From Rotaria socialis (taxonomy: Eukaryota), in NCBI GenBank assembly GCA_905331485.1, contig CAJNYT010000219.1, positions 1 through 49,272 on the forward strand: DNA of 49,272 bases, written 5' to 3'. Shown here piece after piece: positions 2,772-27,778 of this stretch. Within the stretch, counting starts at the first letter, position 1, and every line of letters begins with the position of its first letter. The notes beneath the pieces were generated by a model, which was not told where the DNA came from, made no database searches, and saw only the letters and a list, made by a program, of their open reading frames with translations. The position numbers were made by a program, and so were the translations under genes.

Positions 2772-3267
2772 TAGATATAATTATTTTCTGTAACATAAAG
2801 TTAGACAAGTAAGTAATCATTCATAAGCAGTAACAAATTGTTTTCATGACACACTTGCCAAAAAAGTCCATAGTGGTCCATAGAGTATGATTAAAAAGAA
2901 TAAGTAAATGAGCATTAATTGAATACATGGATATCGACTATTATCTAGATGTGATACATATCGGATGATGCATAAAGAATTATTCCTGTTGTGTTTTTGG
3001 TATTTTTCCTGTATTATCCTGTTAAGTCAAAATTTCTTTTAATCAAAGATAACACTTGCAATTCTACAAAAAATTAAGTAGCCTATTTAATTAATATATA
3101 TATAGCTTCTTCCATTTTACTGGATTCACATCAATTGTACAGTTAGATCGAATATAAAATGTAAATTTCTTATTTTTCTCTTTTTCTCACGACAGACTAT
3201 ATTTCGTCTACCGATGTTGCCGTTGTGATAGCATGATCTCAATAGATAGCTTCAATCAATTAATTCT

Positions 3268-3328
3268 AGGGTATGCGTGTCGGTGTAGATGTTATTTAGT
3301 TATTTTTGCACAATCACACCCACACCCT
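3268..3328. repeat. Inverted telomeric-repeat junction (degenerate G-arm, spacer, C-arm)
   Basis: G-arm agggtatgcgtgtcggtgtag (3268-3288); C-arm cacacccacaccct (3315-3328). Confidence 0.7.
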
Positions 3329-3360
3329 CAAGAAGTTAAGAAAAAGATGTTTAATAATTT

Positions 3361-3555
3361 CTAAGTTTTGCTCGTCAAAGCTTTGCTCGCATGTTGAATG
3401 TTCTTCTTAACTTTAATGATTGCGTGATGATTGTCTTCAAATGTTTTGTGGTAAATAAGCAAAGCTTTTAAAAAACAATGGAAGGTTTGCGGATAGTTTC
3501 CAGTTGAAAAATGAATACTTCCTGTATTGTTGTAAATAAAATCAATAACAGGGCC
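3361..3555 (-). pseudogene. 3-prime terminal fragment (last 64 codons plus stop) of a TPR-protein gene, truncated at a telomeric tract
   Basis: The minus-strand translation VIDFIYNNTGSIHFSTGNYPQTFHCFLKALLIYHKTFEDNHHAIIKVKKNIQHASKAL aligns with the C-terminus of the ART-TPR protein at 25833-27707 (ATYNNIGSVYLCKGDYAKALENFEIALNIGLKSLPADHEHIQTYRENIKHAKERI). Upstream of this point the ORF is only a translation of the telomeric hairpin at 3559-3620. Confidence 0.7.
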
Positions 3556-3558
3556 TTG

Positions 3559-3620
3559 AGGGTGTGGGGTGTACATATATTTATCACCTATAAATACACA
3601 TCCACACCCACACCCACACC
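3559..3620. repeat. Inverted telomeric-repeat junction
   Basis: G-arm agggtgtggggtgt (3559-3572), 23-bp AT-rich spacer, C-arm acacatccacacccacacccacacc (3596-3620). Confidence 0.85.
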
Positions 3621-4127
3621 AACGATAAAAAAGGATATATAACTGTATAAATTTATCAAACAAGACTCGATGTAATACCATTTGTGTCTGAAACTGTTTT
3701 TACTTTTTTCAGAGAGCTCATATTCTAACCAAGTTTACCATTGTAAATGGTAATTAGCAACAAAGTTTAATAAGGTTATGCCATACATGGTTTTACTCAT
3801 CGATTCAAATAGTTCTCTCTCTCTCTCAAGTTAGATTAGGAAGTTCTTCTGATTAGAATTTGACTTTCTGCGTCGATTTGTACAAGCAGATTTTTCTATA
3901 GCACATAATTAGTTTCAAGTAGTACCGTTTGATCGCTCTTGGGTGTTCCTGTATTAATGGTTTTGAGCGGAACACAAATCAACATTCACATCTACAACCC
4001 ATTCGAAATATTTACAAGCCCTGTTGTTTTTTTTTGTGAAGTTTATAATAGAGGTCAATAACGACGAAAACATCACACACACAATCTTGTTTATTTAAAT
4101 CTTAATAATGTAGATTCTGGTGGGGGT

Positions 4128-4279: not shown

Positions 4280-5362
4280 TCAAATTGATCTATCTATTAC
4301 TTGGTTGTTTCTTGGGCCTGTACCTATCAGCACCACAGGAATGCCTGTTTCACGTTCCATCATTTCTATATACTGCTTGGATTTTTCTGAAAGCTGATCA
4401 TATTGTGTGATACCAGCATCATCATAGTTGATATACTGTATGAAGTTAACTGCCAATTTGTTAACACCTGTCAGTTTCACTGCACGTTTGATACGATTCA
4501 CATCAATTTCAAATACCCGTCGTAATTTCTTAGTAACAGTTGTTAATTCTTTCGAAGAAAATGTCCCAATAGGGGCACCTGCTCGTTGTTCTACTTCTTC
4601 CCATGTGATTTCTTTTCCACCATCCCCTGAATATGCTTCACCTCCATCAGATTTAGCCATGTCATTAGAAATACGAATTGGATATGTACGAATGACACCA
4701 TAGATATCTCGAATATGTTTCGGAGGAATACCGTTATCTGAAAGTCCTTGCATTGGTGAACATTCTCTGCTGGTACAATGTGGATATTGAAAACCATGAT
4801 TAATACCTAATTCAAAACCTTGTGCTATTTCTAAAATACCTGTTTTTCCTTGTTCCAAATCATCGCAAGCCATTTCAGCTGTGTCTGCCAAAAAATTCGA
4901 CCACTCTCGAATGTCATGCATTAATTTATGATCTGGATGCCGCATTACTTTGAATGCACTAGCTGCACCAACACCTTTAAATGTACTTCCAGAGCGTATA
5001 TTCTCCTTTTCCCAATCACGATGTGTTTGTTGGATAACCGATGCTCTTGGATGAATAAAAAGACGGCCTTTTGCTTTTTCTTTGCCGCCAAGATACTGAT
5101 CAACTTCATTTTCAAGCTGTACCAAATCGATAACAGCGCCAGCACCTATATATAATTTCGTACTATCATTAATTAACGCTTGTGGCAACTGTTGGAAAAC
5201 ATATTTGGTGCCATCTTGTTTTATTACCGTATGACCTGCTTGTACACCATAGCTTTCAATAGCAAAATCATATTTGTGCTTTGTAGCTAAATATCCACCA
5301 ATAAGTCCTTTCCCGCACGATCCAAAGCAGAGATCAAGAATAATATCCAACGATCGTTCCAT
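4280..5362 (-). CDS. Adenylosuccinate synthetase family protein, short form (360 aa), PurA/PurZ-like, intronless
   Basis: Uninterrupted ATG..TGA ORF. By-eye alignment to E. coli PurA (query / PurA):
- LDLCFGSCGKG / LGTQWGDEGKGK (P-loop)
- QAGHT / NAGHT
- GSTFKGVG / GTTGRGIG
- EIAQGFELGINHGFQYPHCTS / [21 protein letters not shown]
- TTVTKKLRR / ATTGRRRR
- IGTGPR / ISTGPD
The P-loop Asp is replaced (GSCGKG). The TKLD guanine-specificity motif aligns to NFIQ. Confidence 0.85.
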   Translation of the reverse strand: MERSLDIILDLCFGSCGKGLIGGYLATKHKYDFAIESYGVQAGHTVIKQDGTKYVFQQLPQALINDSTKLYIGAGAVIDLVQLENEVDQYLGGKEKAKGRLFIHPRASVIQQTHRDWEKENIRSGSTFKGVGAASAFKVMRHPDHKLMHDIREWSNFLADTAEMACDDLEQGKTGILEIAQGFELGINHGFQYPHCTSRECSPMQGLSDNGIPPKHIRDIYGVIRTYPIRISNDMAKSDGGEAYSGDGGKEITWEEVEQRAGAPIGTFSSKELTTVTKKLRRVFEIDVNRIKRAVKLTGVNKLAVNFIQYINYDDAGITQYDQLSEKSKQYIEMMERETGIPVVLIGTGPRNNQVIDRSI

Positions 5363-6863: not shown

Positions 6864-6958
6864 GGGCGTGGGTGTGGGTGTGTGGATGAAGCAGAGAATA
6901 TGCAACACCCACACCCACACCCACACCCACACCCACACCCACACCCACACCCACACCC
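6864..6958. repeat. Inverted telomeric-repeat junction with the longest tract, (ACACCC)9
   Basis: G-arm gggcgtgggtgtgggtgtgtgga (6864-6886), 18-bp spacer, then nine perfect ACACCC units (6905-6958). Confidence 0.95.
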
Positions 6959-7575: not shown

Positions 7576-9954
7576 TTAGACTTCTTTAAATAATATTCCG
7601 TAGGGTCGAACATTCTGTGAATTGTTACACGTCCATATATCTCGATTGTGCTTTGCGATCGAACTATTATTAATTCTCACTTGAAACATAACTTGCAATT
7701 GTCGGCCATTGTATGGTGTTGGCCTAGAGTAGTGTCTACTCCCGGAATATGATGGATTAGGCGATAAATATATGCCTCGACCATGAGCAGAACCATTAAC
7801 AATAGGTATCCCATTACTACCTCCAGCAATTAAACCATTACGTAGTATAGCTAAAGCATTGGCAGTTGCAGTACCATGATAAGCTACAGGCCATGCATCT
7901 TTGCCCTCCGCTAGCCATTCAGCATTTTCATATTTTCCAAGTACTTTAATAGCCTTTCTATACCATCCGCATGGCCTTGTATAAGGTTCTGGTCCACGTT
8001 GAAAAGTTCGACCGGCATCATTTCTTGTTGTAAAATCGTAGTCGTAAGTGCTATCAAGAAACTCTTCATCTAGCATAACACGATTTACAAAACGATTAGT
8101 CCGAGCAGTAGCACTTGAAAAATGTGGAATATAAGCTGCAATTGAACTCTGATTGTATTGATAAAATCGAACGTTTTGATCATCTTCCCATCGATTTATA
8201 TCATTATCAATATTCCAATAACTTAATCGAATACTTTCAGGACATGTATATTCAGATGGTTCATTTATTATTAATAGTGGACAATGCTCTTTTTTATCAC
8301 TAAATTGAATATGATCAGCTTTGAAATGAATAACTGATATAATTCGATTATAATTTTCTTCTAATGTTCCTTTGTCCGGTACATAATCTTCGTTTTTCCA
8401 TACAGTATTTGGTAAGGATTTACTTACTACGGACTTTGATTCTGATTCTTGTGCTATTTTATATTCCATTATTCGAGAAGAATAATACATAACAGCATTA
8501 CTTTCATACATATCAGCCTTTTCACACTGAGGACACTTTATTTTTACAGTAGAATTAGACTCTTGTTTAATGGTTGATGTTAGTTTATCATTTAATCTTT
8601 TACAGCACTGGTAACAAAATAAAGCTGAACAATTTGGATTAAGACATAATCTATGTTTTTCAGGTATTAAACGACAATATAAACATTCTAAAGCCGAAGT
8701 TCCTTCCATTTCAAATTTATCAATAATTTTTGATTTACGGTATTCTGATAATCGAACTTTCTTGTAACATGTTGGACAATGATGTTCATGATTTGTATTA
8801 TCACAACTGGATTCAATACAAATGCGACAAAATACTTGTGTACAATATGGGCATTCTAAATTATCATCATTAAGTTGTGATAAACAATTTAGACATTCAG
8901 GTTTATCTATGAAAATTAATGAAGATGTTGACGGTTTATTAATTAAAGTAGCTGAATTAAAATCCGTTTCAACTGCTTGTGCTAAATTAGTTTCATTGGA
9001 TGGCGTTTCTTTTTTTGAGGATATAATTGGATTTGACTGAGTAGGATTTATTTTCTTAATGTTAACTTTATCAATCTGATTATTCAATTCATTGATTTTT
9101 GTTGATATCTTCATCCAATTGCATGATGATTTTAAATTATCGATCAAGAAATCGTTGCTCCCAATAGAAATTGTTGTTGATTTTTTATTTCCAATTGTTT
9201 GTTTTGCTTGCTGGGCGGATTTAATCACATTGATGGTCTCAACTGGAAACATTAAAATAATTGTATTATTATCCAATCGAGCTTCACATTCATAATTTAT
9301 TATAGCAAATTTATCCTTATTGATGTCTGAAACTTTTTGACAGCGATCACTAGGTTGGACTGCATTAATCTGAGATGACCCTATATCTCCGTCGACGATA
9401 GTATCAGGCTGAATATTAAATTTTAATTGAACAATAGAACCAGGATTAATTCCTAAATCCAACATTGGAATATATGCATTTTTATTTAATGAGTAATATT
9501 TTCCATTAGCCATAATTCCTTGCGCATAGCGACCGTCGCAACATCTTACTTTACAAAATTGAGATAACAATAAACGATCATAGGGTAATGCTATTAATAA
9601 TGGATAATCATATATTTGGACTGATTTGAACATGGCCGTTTTTATTAATTTAATATGTGACACGTCAGCATTAGCTGAAATGAATATTTTTTCTAGTAAT
9701 TCAAAGTAATTTTCTACATTCATTGTAATTTTTTCTGATAAATGATTAGTTTGAATCATTTTACCAATATGTTGACATAATTTATTATATCTGAGTGGAT
9801 GAATTAATTGGGACGAAGGAATAATTCCCATTTTAATTTCAGTTATTGGCCAATATCTGAGATCTTGATCTTTACTAACAGCGCTAATAGGTTTATTATA
9901 ATCAGAATTTTCACTTTCTAATTGATTAGTGTTATCGGCAATTAAATGAAACAT
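7576..9954 (-). CDS. 792-aa protein: two Cys/His zinc-finger modules (RING/IBR-like) plus a C-terminal ADP-ribosyltransferase-fold (H-Y type, PARP/NEURL4-like) domain
   Basis: Single uninterrupted ORF starting at ATG.
- Zinc modules: CLNCLSQLNDDNLECPYCTQVFCRICIESSCDNTNHEHHCPTCYKK and CLYCRLIPEKHRLCLNPNCSALFCYQCCKRL...KCPQCEK.
- C-terminus: RPCGWYRKAIKVLGKYENAEWLAEGKDAWPVAYHGTATANALAILRNGL...AHGRGIYLSPNPSYS...VRPYGILFKEV. This shows the His (xYHGT) and Tyr (GxGIYxS) signatures of the PARP-type ART fold. Confidence 0.65.
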   Translation of the reverse strand: MFHLIADNTNQLESENSDYNKPISAVSKDQDLRYWPITEIKMGIIPSSQLIHPLRYNKLCQHIGKMIQTNHLSEKITMNVENYFELLEKIFISANADVSHIKLIKTAMFKSVQIYDYPLLIALPYDRLLLSQFCKVRCCDGRYAQGIMANGKYYSLNKNAYIPMLDLGINPGSIVQLKFNIQPDTIVDGDIGSSQINAVQPSDRCQKVSDINKDKFAIINYECEARLDNNTIILMFPVETINVIKSAQQAKQTIGNKKSTTISIGSNDFLIDNLKSSCNWMKISTKINELNNQIDKVNIKKINPTQSNPIISSKKETPSNETNLAQAVETDFNSATLINKPSTSSLIFIDKPECLNCLSQLNDDNLECPYCTQVFCRICIESSCDNTNHEHHCPTCYKKVRLSEYRKSKIIDKFEMEGTSALECLYCRLIPEKHRLCLNPNCSALFCYQCCKRLNDKLTSTIKQESNSTVKIKCPQCEKADMYESNAVMYYSSRIMEYKIAQESESKSVVSKSLPNTVWKNEDYVPDKGTLEENYNRIISVIHFKADHIQFSDKKEHCPLLIINEPSEYTCPESIRLSYWNIDNDINRWEDDQNVRFYQYNQSSIAAYIPHFSSATARTNRFVNRVMLDEEFLDSTYDYDFTTRNDAGRTFQRGPEPYTRPCGWYRKAIKVLGKYENAEWLAEGKDAWPVAYHGTATANALAILRNGLIAGGSNGIPIVNGSAHGRGIYLSPNPSYSGSRHYSRPTPYNGRQLQVMFQVRINNSSIAKHNRDIWTCNNSQNVRPYGILFKEV

Positions 9955-10016: not shown

Positions 10017-10688
10017 CTAATAATAATAATCGGATTTATGAATAATTAATAATCGAAATGGTGGTAATGCAACACGATTTAATCGAAAAGAAAGTTTTAA
10101 AATTTCTTCGTATAATTCTTTTGCTTCATTTTCTAATGAAATCATTATATTTTCATATACTAATACATAATCAGCAAGATCAACAGGTATTGTGTCAATG
10201 TTATCACTATATAGTATAGTGGATAATATCAGATGAGCTGCACCAATAGTCATAGATTTCGGCAACCAAATCGATTTTAATTGACTATTTTTTGTTGTAG
10301 AAGATAATGAATTTAATGATTTAACTGAATAAATTTCATATTTAACCATACCAGCATCAGTGGTCTGATTTATATTATTAACAGTAATAAAATTACTAAA
10401 AGTTGTATAGAGATCATTGACAAATTCGTGTAAGATTGGATTGCCTTTTAAGTCTAAGACTTTTGTTTGTGCTTGTTGTTGAGATTTCTCAATTGTTTCT
10501 TTAACTATTTTACCGTGATCTTTTGATGAAAATGAATTAAAACAATACTTTTCACTTTCAAATAATGCTTTTAATATATTGACAGTTGTTGGGGTGTCAT
10601 AGATAATATTACTTATTGTGTTGTTTCGGTTATTCGCATTAAGATCATTAGTATCGCTTTGATTGGGAACAGTGGAGGAATTACCCAT
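10017..10688 (-). CDS. 223-aa protein of unknown function with an N-terminal myristoylation-type motif (MGNSSTV)
   Basis: ATG-initiated ORF on the same strand as the zinc-finger-ART gene, ending 62 nt upstream of it. No domain recognised by eye. Gly2 plus Thr6 fits the MGxxxS/T pattern. Confidence 0.45.
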   Translation of the reverse strand: MGNSSTVPNQSDTNDLNANNRNNTISNIIYDTPTTVNILKALFESEKYCFNSFSSKDHGKIVKETIEKSQQQAQTKVLDLKGNPILHEFVNDLYTTFSNFITVNNINQTTDAGMVKYEIYSVKSLNSLSSTTKNSQLKSIWLPKSMTIGAAHLILSTILYSDNIDTIPVDLADYVLVYENIMISLENEAKELYEEILKLSFRLNRVALPPFRLLIIHKSDYYY

Positions 10689-11449
10689 TTTTTATTCGTT
10701 CGTAGGCAGAAAATCTGAAATTGTAGTCAAACTATAAAAGTAATACTAACATCGGATTAACTATAAAAATTTTGTGCTAATGATTCGAACAGAAACTCTT
10801 CTAATCGTCGTCCTTCTTCTATCTTAAGAAATTAAAAGACAAAAAGACCGCTTGATAACAGATAAAGAAGAATATTAAAATAAATAGAAGGATGTTTTCA
10901 TATTATCTAATCATTGCTGCTAGATCCTAATAGATATATTTGGCATTTGAATAGATAATTTTAACTTGTGTTCAATATCATATAACACTGTTGTATGGAA
11001 AAAATTTTTATTGCCAACGAAAAATCGTCAACCCACTTGTTTGAACAAGAATTTAAATATTTCAATTTTTTATTGTAGTGTTTTTTATGGGTCACCCTGT
11101 ATATAAACGAAACGAAAAGAAAAATGTAATATGAATCATTACTAACAACAAGAGACATGAAGAGAAACTCAAGGACACGCATATATAGTGAAATCTATAA
11201 TAAAGAAAGTACCAATAGTCTCCTCTGAACACAGTACAGATCATAACTATCTAATATAGATGAATAAATTATGAATATATCAGTGGCTGGCATGTGTAAG
11301 ATTTGCATAACTTGATGCAACCTAATTCACATATTCTTCAGTTCTATCTGAGTCGATTGAATGTAAAAGCTTTTCAGAATAAAGTAAAAATCATGCCAAC
11401 TTTAAAAAATTATTTCCTATGTAATGTTAACTGGCTGTCTCTTGTTTCA

Positions 11450-11508
11450 GCGGATGTGGATGTGTGTGCGCTATCTTTAACCCAGCCTACGCCCACACCC
11501 ACACACCC
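11450..11508. repeat. Inverted telomeric-repeat junction
   Basis: G-arm gcggatgtggatgtgtgtgcg (11450-11470), spacer, C-arm cgcccacacccacacaccc (11490-11508). Confidence 0.8.
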
Positions 11509-11542
11509 TTATGATACTTGACGTCTCTTATTGATCCTTGTA

Positions 11543-12551
11543 TTAGAGATCTGAGCTACGTAAACTCCAGAGTTTAATTATCCATTTGTTTGCGATTTCA
11601 TCAAAGTGGCACGATGTTACCTTAGCAGGAAAACCATCGAAAATCAAAAGTTCTTGTTCATCCGGATAATTTGAATATGGGGACATATCCAGAGAGCCGG
11701 TATCTTTTTCGAGGTCAATGACAAAAAGAAAGTTGCTGCCAAAGAATTCGGCCACGTTCGGATTAAGAGTAGTTGAGGTAAACGCCGGTAATTGGATTTT
11801 TCTTTCAGAGACAACGCATAGTCGAAATTGTTCAATTTGTTCGTTAGTCATCGTTGCTCCTCGATATACTATCATATTAGTGGGAGTAAAATTCATAGCT
11901 GAATTCAATAGTACAGCAAATGGGCCGTTTGGCCATCCATTCACCTTCTCGTTGCTTCCCCACCTTTTTCGCTTCGATTATAAATCCTTCCGCTGCCTTT
12001 TCTATCCACATCTCAAGTACTGACTGACAAGTGATACCTTTCTCCCAACCAACGCCGTAATGAGAACAAGCTTCTTGAACAAAATCAGGAGTTGTTGGTT
12101 CAATTTGCCAGTTTATGAAACTGTTCGAAGGCAAAACTGAATCTTCCAAGAAACGTTCCGCTCTTACTCGTTTCTCTCGTTCATCCTTGTTACGATCAAC
12201 TATACGTTTCACTGGCCGTTGTTTCTTTTCGTCATTATTAGAGATTTGCATAGAACGTGCAAAAACGATATGATAGTCGTCGAGAAGAGCTTCTGGTAAG
12301 CCTTGTTGGAATGCTTCTTCGATGATTTCAGTTTCTACATCGGTGTATTTTCGCCATTCAGCAGGTTCTGCAAAACAGAAAGGAAGCGCATTAGATTGCC
12401 ACAGCCACTCTATATACTGCTTGGCAATCAATGCAGTAGTAGTCATATACGCAACGACCAAACGGTAGCAGTAAAGATTAGATGTGATAGTAAAAAGAAA
12501 GAAAATGAAAGATATATTTCGTTTCATTATTGACTCTTTTTGTTGTTCCAT
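11543..12551 (-). CDS. WWE domain plus R-S-E (arginine-type) mono-ADP-ribosyltransferase, 2 exons (12551-11945, 11898-11543)
   Basis: - N-terminal part: YIEWLWQSNALPFCFAEPAEWRKYTDVETEIIEEAFQQG...YHIVFARSMQISNNDEKKQRPVKR matches the WWE pattern (W-W...W-x-Y...E-x-A...Q...R-x-V-K-R).
- C-terminal part: VYRG (Arg), FTSTT (STS) and PDEQELL (ExE) ART motifs.
- The two ORFs overlap in different frames. A 46-nt GTGAAT...TTCAG intron (11899-11944) joins them in phase, giving 963 nt = 320 aa. Confidence 0.8.
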
Positions 12552-12797
12552 TCTGTGGCTGGAAGAAAGAAAAAAAAGAAAGGAAATGAAAGGAAATGAA
12601 AGGAAAGAAAAGAAGGAGACAATGTTGGTTAACTTCTGTTATGACACGTCTATAAGCTGTGTCATAAGATGAAAGGTATCACCCAAATATCTTGAGGATG
12701 TGTATAGTAAACAGAGACGTGCACAGGATATAATTTTTTCTCCTGCTCTTGCCTGTCCTGTTACCTACCTTGGTTCTGGTGGGCGGCAGGACAGGAG

Positions 12798-12868
12798 AGG
12801 GTGTGGGTGTGGGGTGTGTAGAGGTGGATGTGTGAGGTGATGCTTCTCTTCACTCACACTCACACCCT
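12798..12868. repeat. Inverted telomeric-repeat junction, preceded by a GC-rich CCTGTCCTG/CAGGACAGG hairpin (12752-12797)
   Basis: G-arm gagggtgtgggtgtggggtgtgtagaggtggatgtgtgaggtg; C-arm cactcacactcacaccct. Confidence 0.8.
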
Positions 12869-13386
12869 AAAAATGGAAAGAAAACAAAAACGTATGACGA
12901 AAAAGCAGTAGGTCTCATTAAGTTTTGAGTCTCGATATATCTATAACAAAGGTTGAAGAGGAGCTGGCCATGCAATTTTGGCAGAGAAAAATTTGCTGTA
13001 TCAAACGAAATATTATTCAAAAAGGTTCTGATAGCTTACTACAAAAAACATAACTAAATACTAACTTAACCAATTTTCTATAAAAAAAAGTCGTTTTATT
13101 GAACTGTTGAGTGCGCATTGTTTTTTATTTTGCCATAACTGACGACCTGTAGATCCTTACATGTTGAGGGCGTATTCAATGCGTACTTCATAACATTTTA
13201 GCAGTGACCTAGAGTAAGCTAAATATTTGGATTTGTAGGTTTTTTTATCTTGCTCTTTCATTTCCTATCACAAAGTATAGCGTCTAAAATTTTTGGAAGT
13301 GCGATCCTGTGAAAAAAGATTCGATTTTCTCACGGAGCGTCTCTGAATTCACACTATTAAAATTCAGTATTTAGCGGGTGACTAAG

Positions 13387-13510
13387 GATGTGGGGAGTGT
13401 GGTGTGGGTGTGGGTGGGTGTGGGTGTGAGTGTGTGTGAATCGCCAAACAAAACACCTATAGGGCACCCACACCAGCACCAACTCACGCCCATACACCAA
13501 CACCCACACC
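13387..13510. repeat. Inverted telomeric-repeat junction (long, degenerate arms)
   Basis: G-arm ggatgtggggagtgtggtgtgggtgtgggtgggtgtgggtgtgagtgtgtgtg (13387-13438); C-arm cacccacaccagcaccaactcacgcccatacaccaacacccacacc (13465-13510). Confidence 0.85.
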
Positions 13511-14461
13511 AGAGACCGTCACAGGGCAGGGCAAAAGTTTTTGCCCTGCGCCCTGATAATTTTTCCTATAAACTGATATACAGCATATTTTTCAGTAGAT
13601 TATGCTGACATGGTGATGGATTATAATGTATGTCATTATGCGCCAGTCACTGTGAAATTTGTTACTATGTCTAGTTCGGACAATACCAGTTTACTCATTT
13701 ATTATCATATAATTCAATTATAAAAATAAAATACTGCTTCTAAGAGAAATGCAAAACATGGTAGAATCATTTAATATTGTATAAGAGAACGAGCTAATTT
13801 AAGAATTATGTGTATGATGAGCTTTTTTTCTAAATGATTTCAGACATGAGCTTAGTATTCCAGAGGAAATTTCACTTGAAGATTCAACATGTTCTAATGG
13901 TAACTTTCTTCGCATGTTTTAGTTTTGTATGCTTAGTTCTCTATGTTTTAAATTATTTTCACTTGATATGAACTCGCCCGGTTTTACAAAATTAGAAGAT
14001 CTCTTATTTCATGATAAATCTTACCGCCCCATAATACACAATGAATCTCTTGCTACTGGTACATTTTGAAGAGTCTTTATTTACCCAGCACGATGAGTTG
14101 AGGAGAATACATGTGAAAGATTTACTTGATTTCTCACTTATTCAAATTATGTACATATTCAATCGCCAGATCACGATAAGCGCATTATTTTTGCAGTGAA
14201 CTGATTTTTGTGATAATCTTAATTGCTGTTTGCTACTCATACTTAATTATGTTTTCAGCGCATATCTATATTTTCTCGAATATAGATAAATAAAAATACG
14301 AGTACTTTACTTTTCAGCGGTTACAACATTTTCATTTAGTCTTTACCTTTTTCAATATTTCAGTTCAATTTATAATCACGCCCTGTCCTGCCCTGAGACA
14401 GGGCAGGATATAGCAGGGCGCAGGGCAGGACAGGGCAAAAAGTTGCCCTGTGACGATCTCT
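13511..14461. mobile_element. Non-autonomous element of about 950 bp with GC-rich CAGGGC-palindromic terminal inverted repeats, apparently inserted into the telomeric C-arm
   Basis: The left end is agagaccgtcacagggcagggcaaaagtttttgccctgcgccctg. The reverse complement of the right end is agagatcgtcacagggcaactttttgccctgtcctgccctgcgccctg. The interior is AT-rich with no ORF. C-strand telomeric sequence lies on both sides (..cacccacacc | element | gatccacaccc). Confidence 0.65.
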
Positions 14462-14472
14462 GATCCACACCC

Positions 14473-14530
14473 AGCTTTTGTTAAATTATTTATTAAATGC
14501 CAAGATTTATTTTTTCTGATCGATAGAATG
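14473..14530. repeat. Second copy of the 57-bp unit at 619-675
   Basis: Starts immediately after the solo telomeric C-arm ccacaccc (14465-14472). Confidence 0.8.
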
Positions 14531-16377
14531 GTATTTGTGTATTGAATGAGAAGGGAAATGAAAATTTTTCACTTCTATAAAAACATAGTTGTAAAATATT
14601 TTAACAGTTAAAATAAATATTAAATTCGATTTTACTCATCAATTAATTGAAATTAATAGTTTAGAAAAATCTATTCTATTATGAGCAGAAATTATCAAAG
14701 GTTAAATGAATTTACATAGTACAGAACAAAAATATATGAATCGTTACTATTGCGATGTAATCGAACAAATGCTTCGAGTGCTAGAGGCATCATTATATAT
14801 TGAACTATGTAGAAGTTTATTAATAATAATCTATGAAACTCATTTAGTCTCGGAATATTATCTTCGTAGACATTGAAATTTTGTAAAAATACAATTTTAG
14901 TTTTAGTTTTCTATCATTTGAAATAGGAAATGACTTTTATTGTAATTAAGAAAGCAGTAAAATATCTTATCATCGAAGTCATCCATGATATCTAAGTGAA
15001 ATTATTAGAGATAATCAAGTTGATTTGTTCCGAATTTCATTTCAACACGTTTTGTATTCGTTTTCAATTGTATTTAATAACTGATAAACATGGTCAAGTA
15101 TTATTCAAATATGAATAATTCTGTTGTATTTAAACATAAAGATTTCGATTGAACATACGAAGAGAAACTTTCATTGCTAATGAAAAATATTGAATAATCA
15201 TTGAGACATTTGAACGACTTGTCTTCGCTTTTAAGAATGACGCCAAAATATAAACCTATTTTAATTAGTTCGACACACAGCTATTTAGTCACGCTCGATT
15301 AAATATATATAATTATTTACTTGTAAACAAATTATTTTTTAAAAAATAATTGTATATTTAAATGGCAAATATATTTACAAAAAAAAGTGTTGCTTGAAGT
15401 TCACTGTGATAATGGTTGTGGTTTACTTGTCAATGAAAATTGTCGAGAAAATCTTTTGTTTTTTTTCTTTATTGAATAATCTTTCTCTTCATTTTTGTTA
15501 ATTAGTCAATACATTTATTAAATTATATTCGAACTCATTATTATTTGTCATCATCAATAAAAAATGGATTTATGTTTAATAAATAGTGGAGAACCATTGC
15601 ATCTTTCATCATCTGATACAAAAATTATTTCATCAGGAAGATATTGTTTTCCGTCTCTTTTTCATTGAAGATCTGGATGCATGATATTCACCTCACACAT
15701 TCTACTCTTGTCTTAGTGCATGGGAAAAGACACATATATTTTTGTTGAACAGAAATCTTATTTTCAATCTTTTTTATTTGCTTAGTTTAACAGCTTTGGT
15801 GTGAATGAGAGATGAGCACAATATGCTCTCCCATCCACACGTTTGCCTTCGAGCTATTTTTAATTATTTGTCTCTAGAATAATGATAAAATTGTTAAACT
15901 TGAAAAAAAATCATTCATAAATATGAAATATCTAATAACTTATCAATATATATTCGAGTTTTATGATAGCACATCAATATGCGTATAAAATTCTCCATAG
16001 GTGCACACTTATCAATAAGGAAATGGATGATCTTAACCATTCTATCGTTTCTAGTACTATAATGGGCCACTTCTACAGTTCGATATATCAAAAATTAATA
16101 GATTACATCTACATTGAAAATATCTGGTAAATAGTTTCATCGGATTAATTCACCTATATATTTCTTTTTTTCTATAAGGAATCTTTTTGTTAACATAATT
16201 GATTATCAATGATCGGCTATCATTTAGACGATGTCCGTCAAGCATTGTATAAGTATACGTCTATTCTATTATCCGATAGACACATTATATCGACAATGAA
16301 TTCTTTATCAGGTATGAGTATGTGTAGCTCTTTGATAATATCATTTATTTGTATTATTCTTCTGTACAGAAGACTCC

Positions 16378-17900
16378 ATGCAGCTGGTCGATTTACTTGA
16401 TGAGTTAATTTTAATTATCATGTACAAAGTGAAACCTAAAGTGTTATTGCTTTGTTCTACTATCACTATTGATAATAATCGTTTAGCAAAACTTGCACTT
16501 GATATGTATCATTCAATTGATTTAACTTTTAAGTATTTTCAATCACCATATCAATTTATTATTCCACGTTTTTACACACATTTTATGCCTTGTATCATTA
16601 ATAATATTCAACTTACACATTAGGTAAACTATGATTAACTATCGCTTTAGTTCATTTTCTACTTATAAAATAAGATAAATTCTTATTTTTTCAGAATTAA
16701 AAAAAAAGAACTCTACTTTAAATATAGAAGATTCAAGTGGCTTTTTAGGAACATTTAAGCAGAAAAGATGTGAGACTTTTTTAAGTATTCATTGCGATAA
16801 AAACTTTATGATCAAAATTGTGTTCCTTAAAAATCTTATATTTCGATCATAATACATTTAAAAAGAAGGAACCATTAGATGATATGCTAGTCTACTAGCC
16901 TCCTATCTCTGACCAGAATATGAGCTTTAAACATTATAATAACCTGGTTGATTCTTCTTCTCCTTAGATATTCCTAAAAAACAACTCGAATCTTCTGTAT
17001 TTCGAGTGGAAGTCGACAAAAACCTTTTCCAAAAAAATGGTTGAATACCGATGATTTTACCCTTCTGATAAAATCTATACTTAGGAAAACATTGATATTT
17101 GTATATATTATTAGGCAATAACCTTTACTGTGTTTCGCGGTGTTTTACTCTCTTCTCAAATATACCTCAATTTTCTGTACGTACTGGATAAGAGCAATAC
17201 TGCTCGCACTTGATCTAAATTCTTTTGTTCACTATCTGTGTCTTCTATTGTATCTTTCGAATTGGATGATGATTGTATTTTAAAAAATATATTTTAAAAT
17301 GGCGATGATTTAATTTTTCCTGAATCAATCCATCTGACTCTTATTCGAATAATATTATTTGAATTCGAACGTTGCATTTTTTTACTTAATCAATTGGGCT
17401 CATAATTATGTTCATTCGTTGTAAGTGTGTGGTGTTTGTTTCTGCATCAGATGTTGGTATTTTTTCTAAAATTAAATCAGTAAGCAATATTTAGTAATTG
17501 CAAATCTCATTTAATTAATTCATAAAGATTTCATGTCCTAATTTGAAACGATTGGCAATGAAAATTTGTTTCTTCCTGTTTTACAATGTTGATCAAATTT
17601 CGAATATTTAATATTATTATTAGCTATTGAATTCAAAAGAAATACACCCAAACGTTTTATTGATGGATTTGATTTGGATAAACACATTATTTTATGCATG
17701 CCTCATTTATGTCAATTTCATATTCGTTCAATATTACCAAATGCTGCTCATGTAGAAATCGAGAATGAACTTGAGCGACAAGAAAAAATAGAAACGACAA
17801 CAAATAATCTTGAATTTACTCATTTAACTACTCTGATTTTATTTGATATTCATTTGGATTATGCTGAACAATTACTTTGTCGAAGCCATTTTCCTTCTCT
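16378..17900 (+). pseudogene. Decayed F-box-like / leucine-rich gene
   Basis: - ORF 16378-16623 begins LVDLLDELILIIMYKVKPKVLLLCSTITIDNNRLAKLALD (F-box-like LxxLPDEILxxIF...N-x-R-L pattern).
- ORF 17674-17916 ends ...LEFTHLTTLILFDIHLDYAEQLLCRSHFPSLI.
- The 1 kb between them has leucine-rich stretches in several frames, interrupted by stops. Confidence 0.35.
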
Positions 17901-18720
17901 TATTGTGCAGCGGTAGGCTTTTCATTTAAGGAAATGTGCTCCAACCGCATTAGACCATCCATACGTATAGGCTTCTGTTTTTGTTTACTTTCAATACAAA
18001 CGCCATTAGCTACAGTACGAAATAGCTGCGTAATATCTTTATTTGGCTTTGCTATGTGTTTCAATAGATGTTTGGCGAATAATCCATTTCTATCAGTAGT
18101 ATCACCATCAGAGGCAATTTGATTTGGGCTACATGCAAAGACGACGTAGCTGCCATCCGGTACTTCCATTGCATGTAAACTAATACCTTCGAGCTTCGCT
18201 AAAACAACGATACGTGATACATCTTATACGGCACAATTTTGACTAGTTTTTGCTACCAACCGTTTCTTTGCCTTTTGTTTTTTGGATAGTGTACTCGACA
18301 ACAATCTAGTATAAATACCGTCACAAAGGATGGATTTTTTTGTCTTAATTGATGAAGAGTGCGTTCGGCACAAGTACAATAATCCTCAACATCTTCATCA
18401 GATTTAATTAAATCATCATCTACGTGAGCCAAATATGTTCTGCCATTAACGTGATAGCCATGGCCAGAAAAGTAGAACATAACCAAATCGCCGTCAACGA
18501 TTGTCTCAGCAAAAGCGGATATTGTAGAGGCCATTTGTGACTTTGTAAGATCACGTGCCGTTTTTACCTGAAATTTAATATTTCGTAGCACGTTACTAAG
18601 ATCATTAGCATCATTGATACAATGACGAAGTCTATCTTCAGATTGAATATAATTCTGGTTTCCGATAACTAATGCTATTTTACGGCGAGGCCTTGAGGCA
18701 GTAGAATTCAGAGTAGCCAT
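17900..18720 (-). CDS. Caspase-fold (peptidase C14) protease, paracaspase/metacaspase-like, 2 exons (18720-18261, 18198-17900)
   Basis: - KIALVIGNQNY...NDANDLSNVLRNIKFQVKTARDLTKSQM...LVMFYFSGHGY (catalytic His).
- FILDCCR (catalytic Cys).
- Second exon: SYVVFACSPNQIASDG...NGLFAKHLLKHI.
- A 62-nt GTTGGT...TTTTAG intron (18199-18260) joins the ORFs in phase, giving 759 nt = 252 aa.
- The layout resembles the MALT1 paracaspase core (ALLIGNxxY...YYAGHGY...FLLDMCR). Confidence 0.8.
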
Positions 18721-23097: not shown

Positions 23098-23162
23098 TTG
23101 TGTGTGGGTGTGGGTATGGGCTGATCATGAGTCAGATAGGCACCTGCACCCACACCCACCCT
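23098..23162. repeat. Inverted telomeric-repeat junction
   Basis: G-arm ttgtgtgtgggtgtgggtatggg, 26-bp spacer, C-arm cacccacacccaccct. Confidence 0.85.
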
Positions 23163-24861: not shown

Positions 24862-24954
24862 TGGGTGTGGGTGTGAGATGTGGGCGGGCATAATTTTGAT
24901 TGTGCGTACATGAGACAATAGAATAATATTCATACCCACAACCACACCCACACC
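24862..24954. repeat. Inverted telomeric-repeat junction
   Basis: G-arm tgggtgtgggtgtgagatgtgggcggg, 45-bp spacer, C-arm acccacaaccacacccacacc. Confidence 0.85.
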
Positions 24955-25438
24955 GATTTAACCATAAACTCGCTGATGGAATTAGTTAGGCATTCTTTTT
25001 TGAAATTATATTTATTTCAAAGCAAATTTTGAAATTATTATTTTGTTGTCAGGTAGGACGATTATTGAAACTCTAGAGTTAAGACTAACAGATTGATTTA
25101 TATGAAAGACATACGGATAGGAATTCACTAGTACAGTCGGACTGGTACACCCACCTTCAATCTCATCCCCAGTCTGACCCTTCGAGTGGGGAACCCAAAA
25201 CGGTCCCGTTCCGGATGGGACTGAATTCGGAACCAAAAAATAATTTTTTGTGGAACCGGGACTAAATACTTTTTTAGTCAGTCCCGAGCAAATTTTTTAA
25301 AGAAAAAAAATCGTCTATAGTACTTGGTTCTTTTATTTTCAAGAAGTAATTTCACTATTTTCCCTTTCATATATTTTATAATACAAGAAAATCTTCACAA
25401 ATAAATATTCAAAATTTTAAAACAACACGATAAACTTG

Positions 25439-25495
25439 AGGGTGTGGGTGTAGACTGAATTAAAAACAGCGTATCCACATCGACACCCACACCCA
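25439..25495. repeat. Inverted telomeric-repeat junction
   Basis: G-arm agggtgtgggtgt, 21-bp spacer, C-arm atccacatcgacacccacaccc. Confidence 0.85.
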
Positions 25496-25832
25496 AAATA
25501 GAAGTGTGTTTCAGAAAATCGGGACCTGGACTGAAAAAAATTAGTCGGGCTTGGGATGGGATCGGGACCAAAAAGGGTGGTCCCTCATTTCCCTACCTTC
25601 CAGAGATAAGGCTTTATTTTGAAACTAGTTTTTGTATGCAAACTCACATGTTGTAAAATGTTTTTTTTTATTCTGTGCGATGATAATATTAGGAAAAATA
25701 GATAAGAGAAATTGCGTTGTACAGAATGAAATAAGCACAACGGAAAAATTATTTATTTTAATATTTGATATTCAACACAAGAAGACAGGCAAAAATACAT
25801 TATATTTTAACGAAAATTCATTTTAGGAGTTC

Positions 25833-27707
25833 ATGACTTCATTAACGAAAAATCTTGAAGGTCTGACTATTGTATGGCTTGATGTTGATCGTATTCATCA
25901 AAACACCGATGATTATTTTGATACGAAAAATCGTCTACGACAATGCAATAATTATATAGAAATATATCATGATCCAAATGAGTGTATTCATGGTATAATA
26001 GCGAATGGATACGTTTTTCTAATCGTTTCTGGTTCAATCTGCGAAACATTTATTCCGCTGATTTTTGAAATCAAACAGATCGTATTTATTTACGTTCTAT
26101 ATTCGGATAATCAATTGACGGACACCTGTGAACTAAAAACTATTTCAAAACTTCATGGAATATTCTCAAGTAAAAACCAACTTATTGAAAAACTGAAACA
26201 AGACGTCAAATCATATTTGAAGAGTTTGCCACTAACATGTATCGTCAATGAAAAGTCAATTCGTGCTTTAAACAAAGAATATTCTACGTTTATGTGGACT
26301 CAATTGCTTATGGACGTTTTAATTCAAATACCTCAAACAGATCGTGCAAAAATGATGATGTTAGAAGATTGCCGATTGCATTATGCTGATAATAAAGCTC
26401 AATTAGATGATATTAACGAGTTTCAAGAAAAATATGAACCAGACTTTGCAGTTTGGTGGTATACACGTGAGAGTTTCGCATATAAACAATTAAACCAAGC
26501 ACTACGTACACAAGATATTGACATTATTTTTAAATATCAATTTTTTATAAGAGATCTTTATGTACTATTGAAAGAATTATATGAAGAATCTATGCCATCC
26601 TTAGAAGAAATATCGATTGTCTACCGTGGCCAACATATCAATTGTGATGAATTGGAAAAAATAAAAAATAATGTGAACGGTCTTATTTCAATGAATTCAT
26701 TTTTATCAACAACTCGAAACAAGAATCGAGCTTTAATATCCGCCGGTGATGGTTCAAATAGGCCCTCGCTTGAATCCATCTTATTTGAAATTACGATTAA
26801 TAAAAATGTTGCTGCTAAAACTAAACCATTCGCTGACATTACAAAGATGAGTCAATTTGGCAAGGCAGAAGAAGAAATACTATTATCGATTGGAAGTATA
26901 TTCAAGATTCAGTCAGTTGAACAGTTAGCTGAAAATGCTCATGTTTGGGACGTTAAGCTAATATTAAATGAATCAGTGGTGATTAATGAAATAGACATGT
27001 TATTCAATTATTTCAAAATGAATTCAACTACAAGTATATCGAATGTCGGTACATTAGGTTTACTATTAGGAGAGATGGGAGAATATGAAAAAGCGGAAAA
27101 ATATTATCAAATGATGCTTGATGAATTATCAACAGATCATTGCGGAGTTCCAATAATATTAAATAATATGGGAGTATTATACAATGATATGGGTAATGAT
27201 GAAAAAGCATTAGAATATTATAAGAAATCATACGAAAGTTATAAAATGCAAAACGTATCAGAAAATGATCTTCTCTTAGCGAATTTATATCATAATATGG
27301 GTTCATTGTATTATGAAAATGAGTATAATAAAACAGCATTGAAATATTTTAAAAAAGCTTTTAAAATTTGTAATAATAATTCTACGCTACCCAGTCTTTT
27401 ATTATCTGCAACATTATATACAGACGTGAGTGGAATATATCAAGATAATGAAGATTCTGTTAATGCATTGGATCAGTTGCAACACACATTTGAAATCCAA
27501 AAAAGAATTCTACCATCAACTCATTTCAGAATCGCTGCAACATACAATAACATAGGAAGTGTTTATCTTTGTAAAGGAGATTATGCAAAAGCATTAGAAA
27601 ACTTTGAAATAGCCTTGAATATTGGATTAAAATCTTTGCCAGCCGATCATGAACATATTCAAACATATCGTGAAAATATAAAACATGCTAAAGAAAGAAT
27701 AAAGTAA
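25833..27707 (+). CDS. 624-aa R-S-E ADP-ribosyltransferase domain protein with C-terminal TPR repeats
   Basis: Single ATG..TAA ORF.
- ART motifs: VYRGQ (Arg), FLSTT (STS), GKAEEEILL (ExE).
- C-terminal third: repeated TPR-type units (NNMGVLYNDMGNDEKALEYYKKS, YHNMGSLYYENEYNKTALKYFKKA, YNNIGSVYLCKGDYAKALENFEIA).
- An AATAAA at 27698-27703 overlaps the end of the ORF. Confidence 0.85.
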   Translation: MTSLTKNLEGLTIVWLDVDRIHQNTDDYFDTKNRLRQCNNYIEIYHDPNECIHGIIANGYVFLIVSGSICETFIPLIFEIKQIVFIYVLYSDNQLTDTCELKTISKLHGIFSSKNQLIEKLKQDVKSYLKSLPLTCIVNEKSIRALNKEYSTFMWTQLLMDVLIQIPQTDRAKMMMLEDCRLHYADNKAQLDDINEFQEKYEPDFAVWWYTRESFAYKQLNQALRTQDIDIIFKYQFFIRDLYVLLKELYEESMPSLEEISIVYRGQHINCDELEKIKNNVNGLISMNSFLSTTRNKNRALISAGDGSNRPSLESILFEITINKNVAAKTKPFADITKMSQFGKAEEEILLSIGSIFKIQSVEQLAENAHVWDVKLILNESVVINEIDMLFNYFKMNSTTSISNVGTLGLLLGEMGEYEKAEKYYQMMLDELSTDHCGVPIILNNMGVLYNDMGNDEKALEYYKKSYESYKMQNVSENDLLLANLYHNMGSLYYENEYNKTALKYFKKAFKICNNNSTLPSLLLSATLYTDVSGIYQDNEDSVNALDQLQHTFEIQKRILPSTHFRIAATYNNIGSVYLCKGDYAKALENFEIALNIGLKSLPADHEHIQTYRENIKHAKERIK

Positions 27708-27722
27708 TCGAATATTAATAAT

Positions 27723-27778
27723 GGGGTGTGTGGTGTGGGTGTGGATATGATCCAGACTGGAAAATTCACCCACACCCA
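27723..27778. repeat. Inverted telomeric-repeat junction starting 15 nt after the ART-TPR stop codon
   Basis: G-arm ggggtgtgtggtgtgggtgtgga, 21-bp spacer, C-arm cacccacaccca. Confidence 0.9.

Follow-up and report, generated by a model that had tools for sequence, protein, structure and literature searches.

A 161-nt deletion that probably disables a Rotaria socialis WWE-ART gene and leaves the appearance of an intron

The WWE-ART locus and its surroundings

The window analyzed here is the whole stretch of 49,272 nt from Rotaria socialis. Two ORFs on its minus strand, 11877-12551 (224 aa) and 11543-11944 (133 aa), lie in different frames and have 68 nt in common. The stretch from GTGAAT (first base 11944) to TTCAG (last base 11899) is 46 nt long, and its removal joins ..KKVGKQRE to AMNFTPTNMIVYRGATM.. 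in an ORF of 963 nt. We recomputed the ORF coordinates, the overlap, both candidate splice sites and the joined frame given in the initial annotation of this DNA, and all were correct. In what follows, the window copy of the gene is called A, the intact R. socialis copy B, a diverged third copy C and the Rotaria magnacalcarata gene M. The features of the locus and of the remainder of the window are as follows.

11877..12446, minus strand: upstream frame, from ATG 12444-12446 to a premature stop at 11877-11879; 189 aa, identical to public model P0089; holds the WWE domain, a linker, the first ART helix and a 15-residue out-of-frame tail, PICCTIEFSYEFYSH (11880-11924)
12204..12407, minus strand: WWE domain (Pfam PF02825), aa 14-81 counted from Met 12446
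12447..12551, minus strand: in-frame upstream extension of 35 codons, MEQQKESIMKRNISFIFFLFTITSNLYCYRLVVAY, probably 5' UTR
11924..11926, minus strand: deletion junction with GGC microhomology, as placed by the DNA alignment; blocks of the BLAST alignment stop at 11924/11926
11899..11944, minus strand: the claimed 46-nt intron, read here as an exon remnant that encodes (E)GEWMAKR (11925-11945, upstream frame) and then GPFAVLLNSA (11897-11926, downstream frame)
11869..11944, minus strand: alternative 76-nt intron of public model P0001 (275 aa; gene span 904 nt), from identical DNA in other assemblies
11543..11926, minus strand: what is left of the ART catalytic core, read in the downstream frame to a stop at 11543-11545
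11452..11515, no strand assigned: inverted telomere-like repeat pair, GGATGTGGATGTGTGTG ... CCCACACCCACACACCC, shortly past the stop on the 3' side, where homology to copies B and C runs out
12800..12840, no strand assigned: telomere-like (TGTGGG)n stretch, 5' of the gene
7576-9954, minus strand: 792-aa ORF containing a PARP catalytic domain; it lies immediately downstream of WWE-ART, and R. magnacalcarata has the same neighbour
10017-10688, minus strand: ORF in the ADP-ribosylation-gene neighbourhood, listed with the nearby ADP-ribosylation genes
34724-38538, plus strand: multi-exon PARP4/vault-PARP-like gene with PARP and VIT and probably VWA
4280-5362, minus strand: adenylosuccinate synthetase fragment (domain match)
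18253-18720, minus strand: ORF with a caspase (Peptidase_C14) domain (domain match)
25833-27707, plus strand: 624-aa TPR protein, whose N-terminus of roughly 440 aa is without a domain match
28479-29555, minus strand: EryCIII/UDP-glycosyltransferase-like ORF, which might be bacterial in origin

The bdelloid telomeric hexamer, sought as (TGTGGG)2 with up to 1 mismatch, occurs 33 times in the window against 0.03 expected, and nearly all occurrences are intergenic. Nearly all copies lie in head-to-head pairs consisting of (TGTGGG)n, an unrelated spacer of 20-50 nt and (CCCACA)n, in the same order in 9/9 pairs (3557-3618, 6867-6955, 11452-11515, 13403-13508, 23103-23160, 24866-24952, 25437-25497, 27734-27780 and 39775-39824), while single TGTGGG stretches stand at 3319, 12802 and 21291. 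For several pairs, a stop codon (11543, 27707) is no more than about 20-40 nt away. The pairs have the look of two telomere-capped ends joined together. Enrichment of TGTGGG in subtelomeric regions has been published (PMC7943196, PMC11258130); no description of the paired head-to-head arrangement was found in the literature.

The initial annotation had seen a WWE domain joined to an R-S-E mono-ART, and had suggested HMM searches. We tested the WWE domain against Pfam PF02825 and the arginine-type mono-ART against PF03496 and PF01129, using the curated cut-offs. WWE scored 32.5-33.7 bits against a cut-off of 21.1 (32.5 in the joined product, aa 49-116 there), ADPrib_exo_Tox 39.6 bits in the joined product and 41.2 on ORF 11543-11944 alone (cut-off 23.4), and ART 26.3 and 29.6 bits, respectively (cut-off 22.3). 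All three profiles were above cut-off and the R, S-T-T and E-x-E motifs were present, so the domain call holds. In the WWE half, W14, W16, W31, E38 and E43, which are invariant or nearly so in the family, are present in the window copy, and the downstream frame keeps the catalytic R (VYRG, R codon 11861-11863), S-T-T (FTSTT, 11768-11776) and E-Q-E (11651-11659); R249, S278, E317 and E319 are invariant in the family alignment of 39 sequences. The reader and the catalytic core are not, however, in one continuous frame, given the frameshift at 11924-11926 and the stop at 11877-11879, and the surviving catalytic residues are unlinked from the WWE domain, with the helical layer of the ART gone.

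The family WWE profile also matches the WWE domains of Deltex, TRIP12, HUWE1 and RNF146. Y58, Q67 and R77 are conserved, with a spacing that may be that of the iso-ADP-ribose contacts Y144, Q153 and R163 of RNF146. A PDB search with the WWE region alone returned no RNF146 alignment, and single-sequence PDB searches gave marginal matches only, the family profile being needed for clear ones.

We favour Met 12446 over 12551 as the start codon, on the basis of comparison with homologues. All 36 of 36 homologues start 10-25 residues ahead of the first WWE tryptophans, the N-termini of the family align at Met 12446, and the public models start there. The 35 upstream codons are open in A, B and M, and 3/3 differences among them are non-synonymous. 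The hydrophobic N-terminal extension is absent from all 36 aligned homologues, and a signal peptide was accordingly rejected as a feature of the family. Of the two possibilities raised by the initial annotation, the internal Met before TTALIAKQYIEW (12446) is thus the one that homologues use, whereas the signal peptide is the one that they lack. A long tract of pyrimidines and TTTCC repeats (window 12555-12640, minus strand) ends in TTCCAG just before the ATG at 12551 and is conserved in B and M. It may serve as an acceptor for splicing or trans-splicing, in which case the mRNA would have 12551 as its first AUG.

A 161-nt gap relative to intact relatives

Relative to its intact relatives, the window copy is without 161 nt (53 codons and 2 nt), which shifts the frame. 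The R. magnacalcarata orthologue P0002 (CAF1984890.1, 354 aa) is an uninterrupted 1065-nt ORF on three contigs, and its protein reads ...KKVGKQREGEWMAKR-LLEQKNGSKQQVEQLCVKLYCMGSFLYRKLNETMRLQGDFAFETLWKSRVPTLG-PFAVLLNSAMNFTRTNMIVYRG..., while the intact R. socialis copies P0084, P0085 and P0093 are each a single 1065-nt ORF of 354 aa. When the DNA was aligned, one clean 161-nt gap set the window and four other R. socialis contigs, which come from different assemblies, apart from the three R. magnacalcarata contigs, with about 97-98% identity throughout, both flanks included. The apparent frameshift, which the initial annotation had resolved by an intron, is therefore this deletion.

The same segment is kept in the diverged copy C and is present without gaps in 36/36 other aligned family members. 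Since it is found in the intact R. socialis copies, the third copy and all 36 distant members, the 161-nt segment is ancestral. An insertion specific to the other copies is contradicted by this presence across the family, and the loss of an ancestral intron was rejected, as the 161 nt are coding and not a multiple of three. In the intact copies, the missing piece is bordered by GGC on either side (AAAC GGC TTCTC ... ATTG GGC CCATT), and the window keeps one of the two, at 11924-11926, the junction of the window allele being of the GCCAAACGGCCCATTTG type and reading ...GCCAAAC/GGCCCATTTG.... The GGC at both ends suggests that the deletion may have formed between the two trinucleotides by microhomology-mediated end joining or by replication slippage. 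Across the family, both GEWMAKR (upstream frame) and GPFAVLLNSA (downstream frame) are conserved. The alignments show the two overlapping ORFs to be the two halves of the old gene, and the 46 nt to be coding sequence left over on both sides of the scar.

That the frameshift might be an assembly or sequencing artefact, with the real gene intact, was considered, since copies may be collapsed or chimerised when a degenerate tetraploid is assembled from short reads of single individuals, and contigs L004 and L006 join the region differently. However, the same 161-nt gap with identical flanks appears in the window and in contigs of at least four other assemblies, the models P0089 and P0082 come from another contig, and 13 private substitutions set the deleted copy apart from the intact one. 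Assembly error was rejected because the lesion is reproducible across assemblies, and we regard an artefact as extremely improbable. As to the joins themselves, position about 949-1731 of L004 is joined to window position 13717, so that part of a B-type copy, inverted, stands upstream of the deleted one, and L006 at 4574 joins window 10870 to 17597 inverted, an inversion-like junction downstream. Such joins reflect either true structural variants of a subtelomere-like region or chimeric assembly.

The deletion takes out residues 175-228 of the 354-aa protein. In an AF2 model of the intact orthologue (pLDDT 87, pTM 0.86), helices 165-176, 183-195, 199-208 and 214-235 occupy the part lost, and the model shows the codons missing by deletion to encode three helices of the N-terminal helical layer of the ART, including the LYxxxNxxxRL motif. 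By Foldseek, the ART domain of this model matches C3bot1, Plx2a, HopU1, ExoS and C2-I over about 185 columns with E of about 1e-8. The family profile matches HopU1 with E=6.5e-10, in an alignment that opens with LYkklNevmRL against LYREVNNYLRL of HopU1, and this motif is inside the deleted segment. A 46-nt splice would extend the loss to residues 168-237 (70 residues), in columns that hold 13 nearly invariant positions (L175, C190, Y194, S198, F199, L200, N205, M208, R209, L210, P229, F230 and L234). Consistent with this, the Pfam ART match covers profile positions 47-215 in the orthologue and only 126-218 in the spliced window product, and the spliced 285-aa product reached a pTM of 0.59 compared to 0.86 for the intact protein, with the beta-core still drawn, although AlphaFold is not a predictor of stability.

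The candidate intron and the status of the deleted copy

According to the initial annotation, 11899-11944 is a 46-nt intron. On that reading, a genuine spliceosomal intron would be removed to give a functional WWE-ART enzyme (285 or 320 aa, depending on the start). The stretch has GT..AG termini and its removal restores the 963-nt frame, and the catalytic residues (R, S-T-T and E-Q-E) are all still present downstream. Nevertheless, the window gene contains 14 frame-restoring GT..AG pairs of 40-100 nt, and when 161-nt deletions were placed at random in the intact orthologue (400 simulated), 96% had at least one such pair to rescue the frame (median 13). Because it is expected by chance in 96% of the simulated deletions, frame restoration carries no evidential weight for the intron. 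Five family gene models are intronless (P0002 of R. magnacalcarata, P0084, P0093 and P0007 of R. socialis, and P0171 of Adineta vaga), the stretch itself is conserved coding sequence in two frames on either side of the deletion, and the spliced product would be without 70 residues, four helices and 13 nearly invariant positions. For comparison, we used the four introns of the PARP4-like gene in the window, which were validated by continuous PARP and VIT domain matches after their removal. These are 59-75 nt long with 26-37% GC; the candidate, at 46 nt, is not far below them in length (n=4), whereas its GC content of 46% (41% in its own gene) is above theirs, a difference that is supportive only, given the small sample of four.

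The public gene models also bear on this question. The BRAKER model P0083 (CAF3338420.1, 285 aa), on this very contig, uses the 46-nt intron and is the 46-nt-spliced translation begun at the internal Met, but other public models of the same DNA have a 76-nt intron or split the gene without any. In all, identical DNA has received three structures: the 46-nt intron of P0083, the 76-nt intron of P0001 (275 aa, 8 contigs), and the split into P0089 (189 aa) and P0082 (102 aa). All R. socialis assemblies were annotated by BRAKER with the same published RNA-seq (PMC7943196). Since three discordant BRAKER structures were obtained for identical DNA, we infer that the spliced reads give no consistent support to any of them. 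With its relatives intronless and the stretch matching conserved coding sequence at the flanks of the deletion, the 46-nt intron of the initial annotation is not supported, and a functional enzyme made by its removal is highly unlikely.

A different use of the same sites can be envisaged, in which the scar serves as a newborn intron by "intronization" of former exon sequence (46 or 76 nt), so that a shortened WWE protein with a minimal ART beta-core would still be made. If true, this would be the birth of an intron caught in the act, rescuing a frameshift in an asexual animal; we give it very little credence.

These findings, taken together, make it likely, with a probability of roughly 0.85, that the locus is a recently disabled copy, that is, a null allele or young pseudogene, of an intronless R. 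socialis WWE-ART gene. The transcript, if left unspliced, would yield a 189-aa protein with the WWE domain only. Splicing at either pair of predicted cryptic sites (46 or 76 nt) would yield a product that is missing four helices of the ART and has very probably lost its catalytic activity. The supposed intron is best seen as a gene-model fix that appears inconsistently in public annotation, and CAF3338420.1 (285 aa) and the set of 275-aa P0001 entries should be flagged as deletion alleles, not as spliced genes.

An investigation of the related copies gave some indication of the age of the lesion. In coding sequence, copy A shows 98.0% identity with each of the other two, the intact R. socialis copy B and M, and the identity between B and M is 98.9%. 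The private substitutions number 13 in A (6 non-synonymous and 7 synonymous) and 5 each in B and M; the 6N:7S ratio in A does not display relaxed constraint, and 13 changes are too few to decide the matter. Copy A contains no second disabling mutation, and the 133-codon ART frame downstream of the deletion is still open. The lesion looks young because no second disabling mutation is present, and the substitution pattern and the lack of further decay fit a very young lesion and fit a gene still in use equally well.

It is conceivable, though unlikely, that the 189-aa WWE-only product is kept and used, for instance as a free ADP-ribose reader or a decoy, and that the deletion made a new short gene. 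The WWE domain and the start are intact, the allele is found in many assemblies, and short WWE-only relatives exist in the database (P0071, P0073-75, P0078 and P0079), but these entries may be fragments or pseudogenes themselves. Likewise, the 6N:7S substitutions of the A lineage are not obviously neutral, but most of them are probably older than the deletion. Moreover, an intact copy co-occurs in R. socialis, and nothing requires that the deleted one be kept.

A and M have common downstream neighbours, a 223-aa ORF and the PARP-domain gene. Copy B has an upstream flank like that of A (99.8%) and an unrelated downstream flank, and the identity of the window to the contig of copy B changes at 12800..12840 from 99.8% in the upstream flank to about 96.5-98% in the gene. 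On contig L004, the deleted copy is accompanied by an incomplete B-type copy in which the 161 nt are present; the two versions thus co-occur in at least one assembly. A and B are either alleles or recent paralogues. In the coding sequence (contigs L013 and L001), copy B resembles M (98.9%) more than it does the deleted copy A (98.0%), which hints at old cross-species haplotypes, gene conversion or faster change in the deleted copy.

The homology of copy B also begins directly at (CCCACA)n. The third copy (L008 about 2830-3650 in R. socialis; also P0004 in R. magnacalcarata) is 86-89% identical and has lost its WWE half; it starts mid-gene directly after a CCCACA-like telomeric stretch and has three 1-nt deletions, and the public 185-aa models P0004 and P0005 begin in an out-of-frame stretch of it. 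This third copy looks like a gene that was broken and then healed by telomere addition.

The bdelloid WWE-ART family and known systems

A profile search found 201 clusters (90% identity) at E<=1e-5, of which the best 120 were nearly all full-length WWE+ART proteins, and every named member among these 120 was bdelloid (Rotaria spp., Adineta spp. including A. vaga, and Didymodactylos). A HMMER scan of 1.84 billion representatives gave 352 clusters (50% identity) at E<=1e-30 and 1183 at E<=1e-10. Most of the best 150 HMMER matches formed one stretch across both domains, and P0001 was among the few that matched in two stretches. The proteins of the family are roughly 350 aa long, with an N-terminal WWE domain and a C-terminal R-S-ExE mono-ART of the arginine type, C3/HopU1-like. 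The WWE-ART fusion is thus real, and a very large family in bdelloids has it as its standard architecture.

Published fusions of WWE domains with transferases are the WWE-PARP proteins (PMC4245714), and literature searches for WWE with bdelloid or rotifer, and for WWE with R-S-E ART, found no paper on the present architecture. The view of the initial annotation that the fusion is unusual is therefore correct as measured against the published literature; in bdelloids, it is a routine family with hundreds of members. These hundreds of diverged members in Rotaria, Adineta and Didymodactylos are often near PARP genes and telomere-like repeats. In the intact members, the WWE domain may dock on poly- or iso-ADP-ribose or a related ligand and so bring the arginine-specific ART to nearby targets, by analogy with WWE-PARP and WWE-E3 proteins. 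Bdelloids are famous for surviving massive DNA breakage. Intact members of the family could link poly-ADP-ribose signalling to arginine mono-ADP-ribosylation. The window locus itself, as a broken copy of a catalogued multigene family, matters little.

The closest known relatives of the window copy are in the bdelloid WWE-ART family itself, which is found under the automatic names "NAD(P)(+)--arginine ADP-ribosyltransferase" and "WWE domain-containing protein" (P0002, P0084, P0085 and P0093) with about 98% coding nucleotide identity. A search for similar proteins gave R. socialis and R. magnacalcarata sequences as the nearest. The window copy and the intact members have in common the order of the domains, the start codon, the catalytic R/S-T-S/E-x-E and the 3' flank, and the neighbouring PARP gene is common to the window and the R. 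magnacalcarata locus. The intact members, however, are single ORFs, whereas the window copy is frameshifted and lacks aa 175-228.

The bacterial R-S-E mono-ARTs (HopU1, 3u0j; C3bot1, 1gzf and 2c89; Plx2a; ExoS; Vis; SpvB) are like the rotifer family in their ART fold and motifs, and the HopU1 profile match of the family spans LYxxxNxxxRL, YRG, (F)xSTS and EEE. On the other hand, these toxins and effectors are secreted and have no WWE domain, their identity to the rotifer family is only about 15-22%, and C3 has Q-x-E and targets Asn, where the rotifer family has E-x-E. The vertebrate ecto-ARTs (ARTC; ART2.2, 1gxy; PF01129) carry the same R-S-ExE arginine-type signature as the rotifer family, and ART2.2 gave a weak match to the family profile (E=0.019). 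Ecto-ARTs work extracellularly and carry signal peptides, GPI anchors and disulfides. The rotifer family differs from them in its WWE domain, which is of an intracellular type, and in having homologues without a signal peptide.

With regard to the reader, the WWE-PARPs (PARP11, PARP7/12/13, PARP14 and plant RCD1) and the WWE E3 ligases (RNF146, Deltex, HUWE1 and TRIP12) have the WWE domain N-terminal to an enzyme of a second modification, as in the rotifer family (PMC4245714). The catalytic partner in those proteins is a diphtheria-toxin-like PARP of the H-Y-E type or a ubiquitin ligase, whereas in the rotifer family it is an R-S-E ART.
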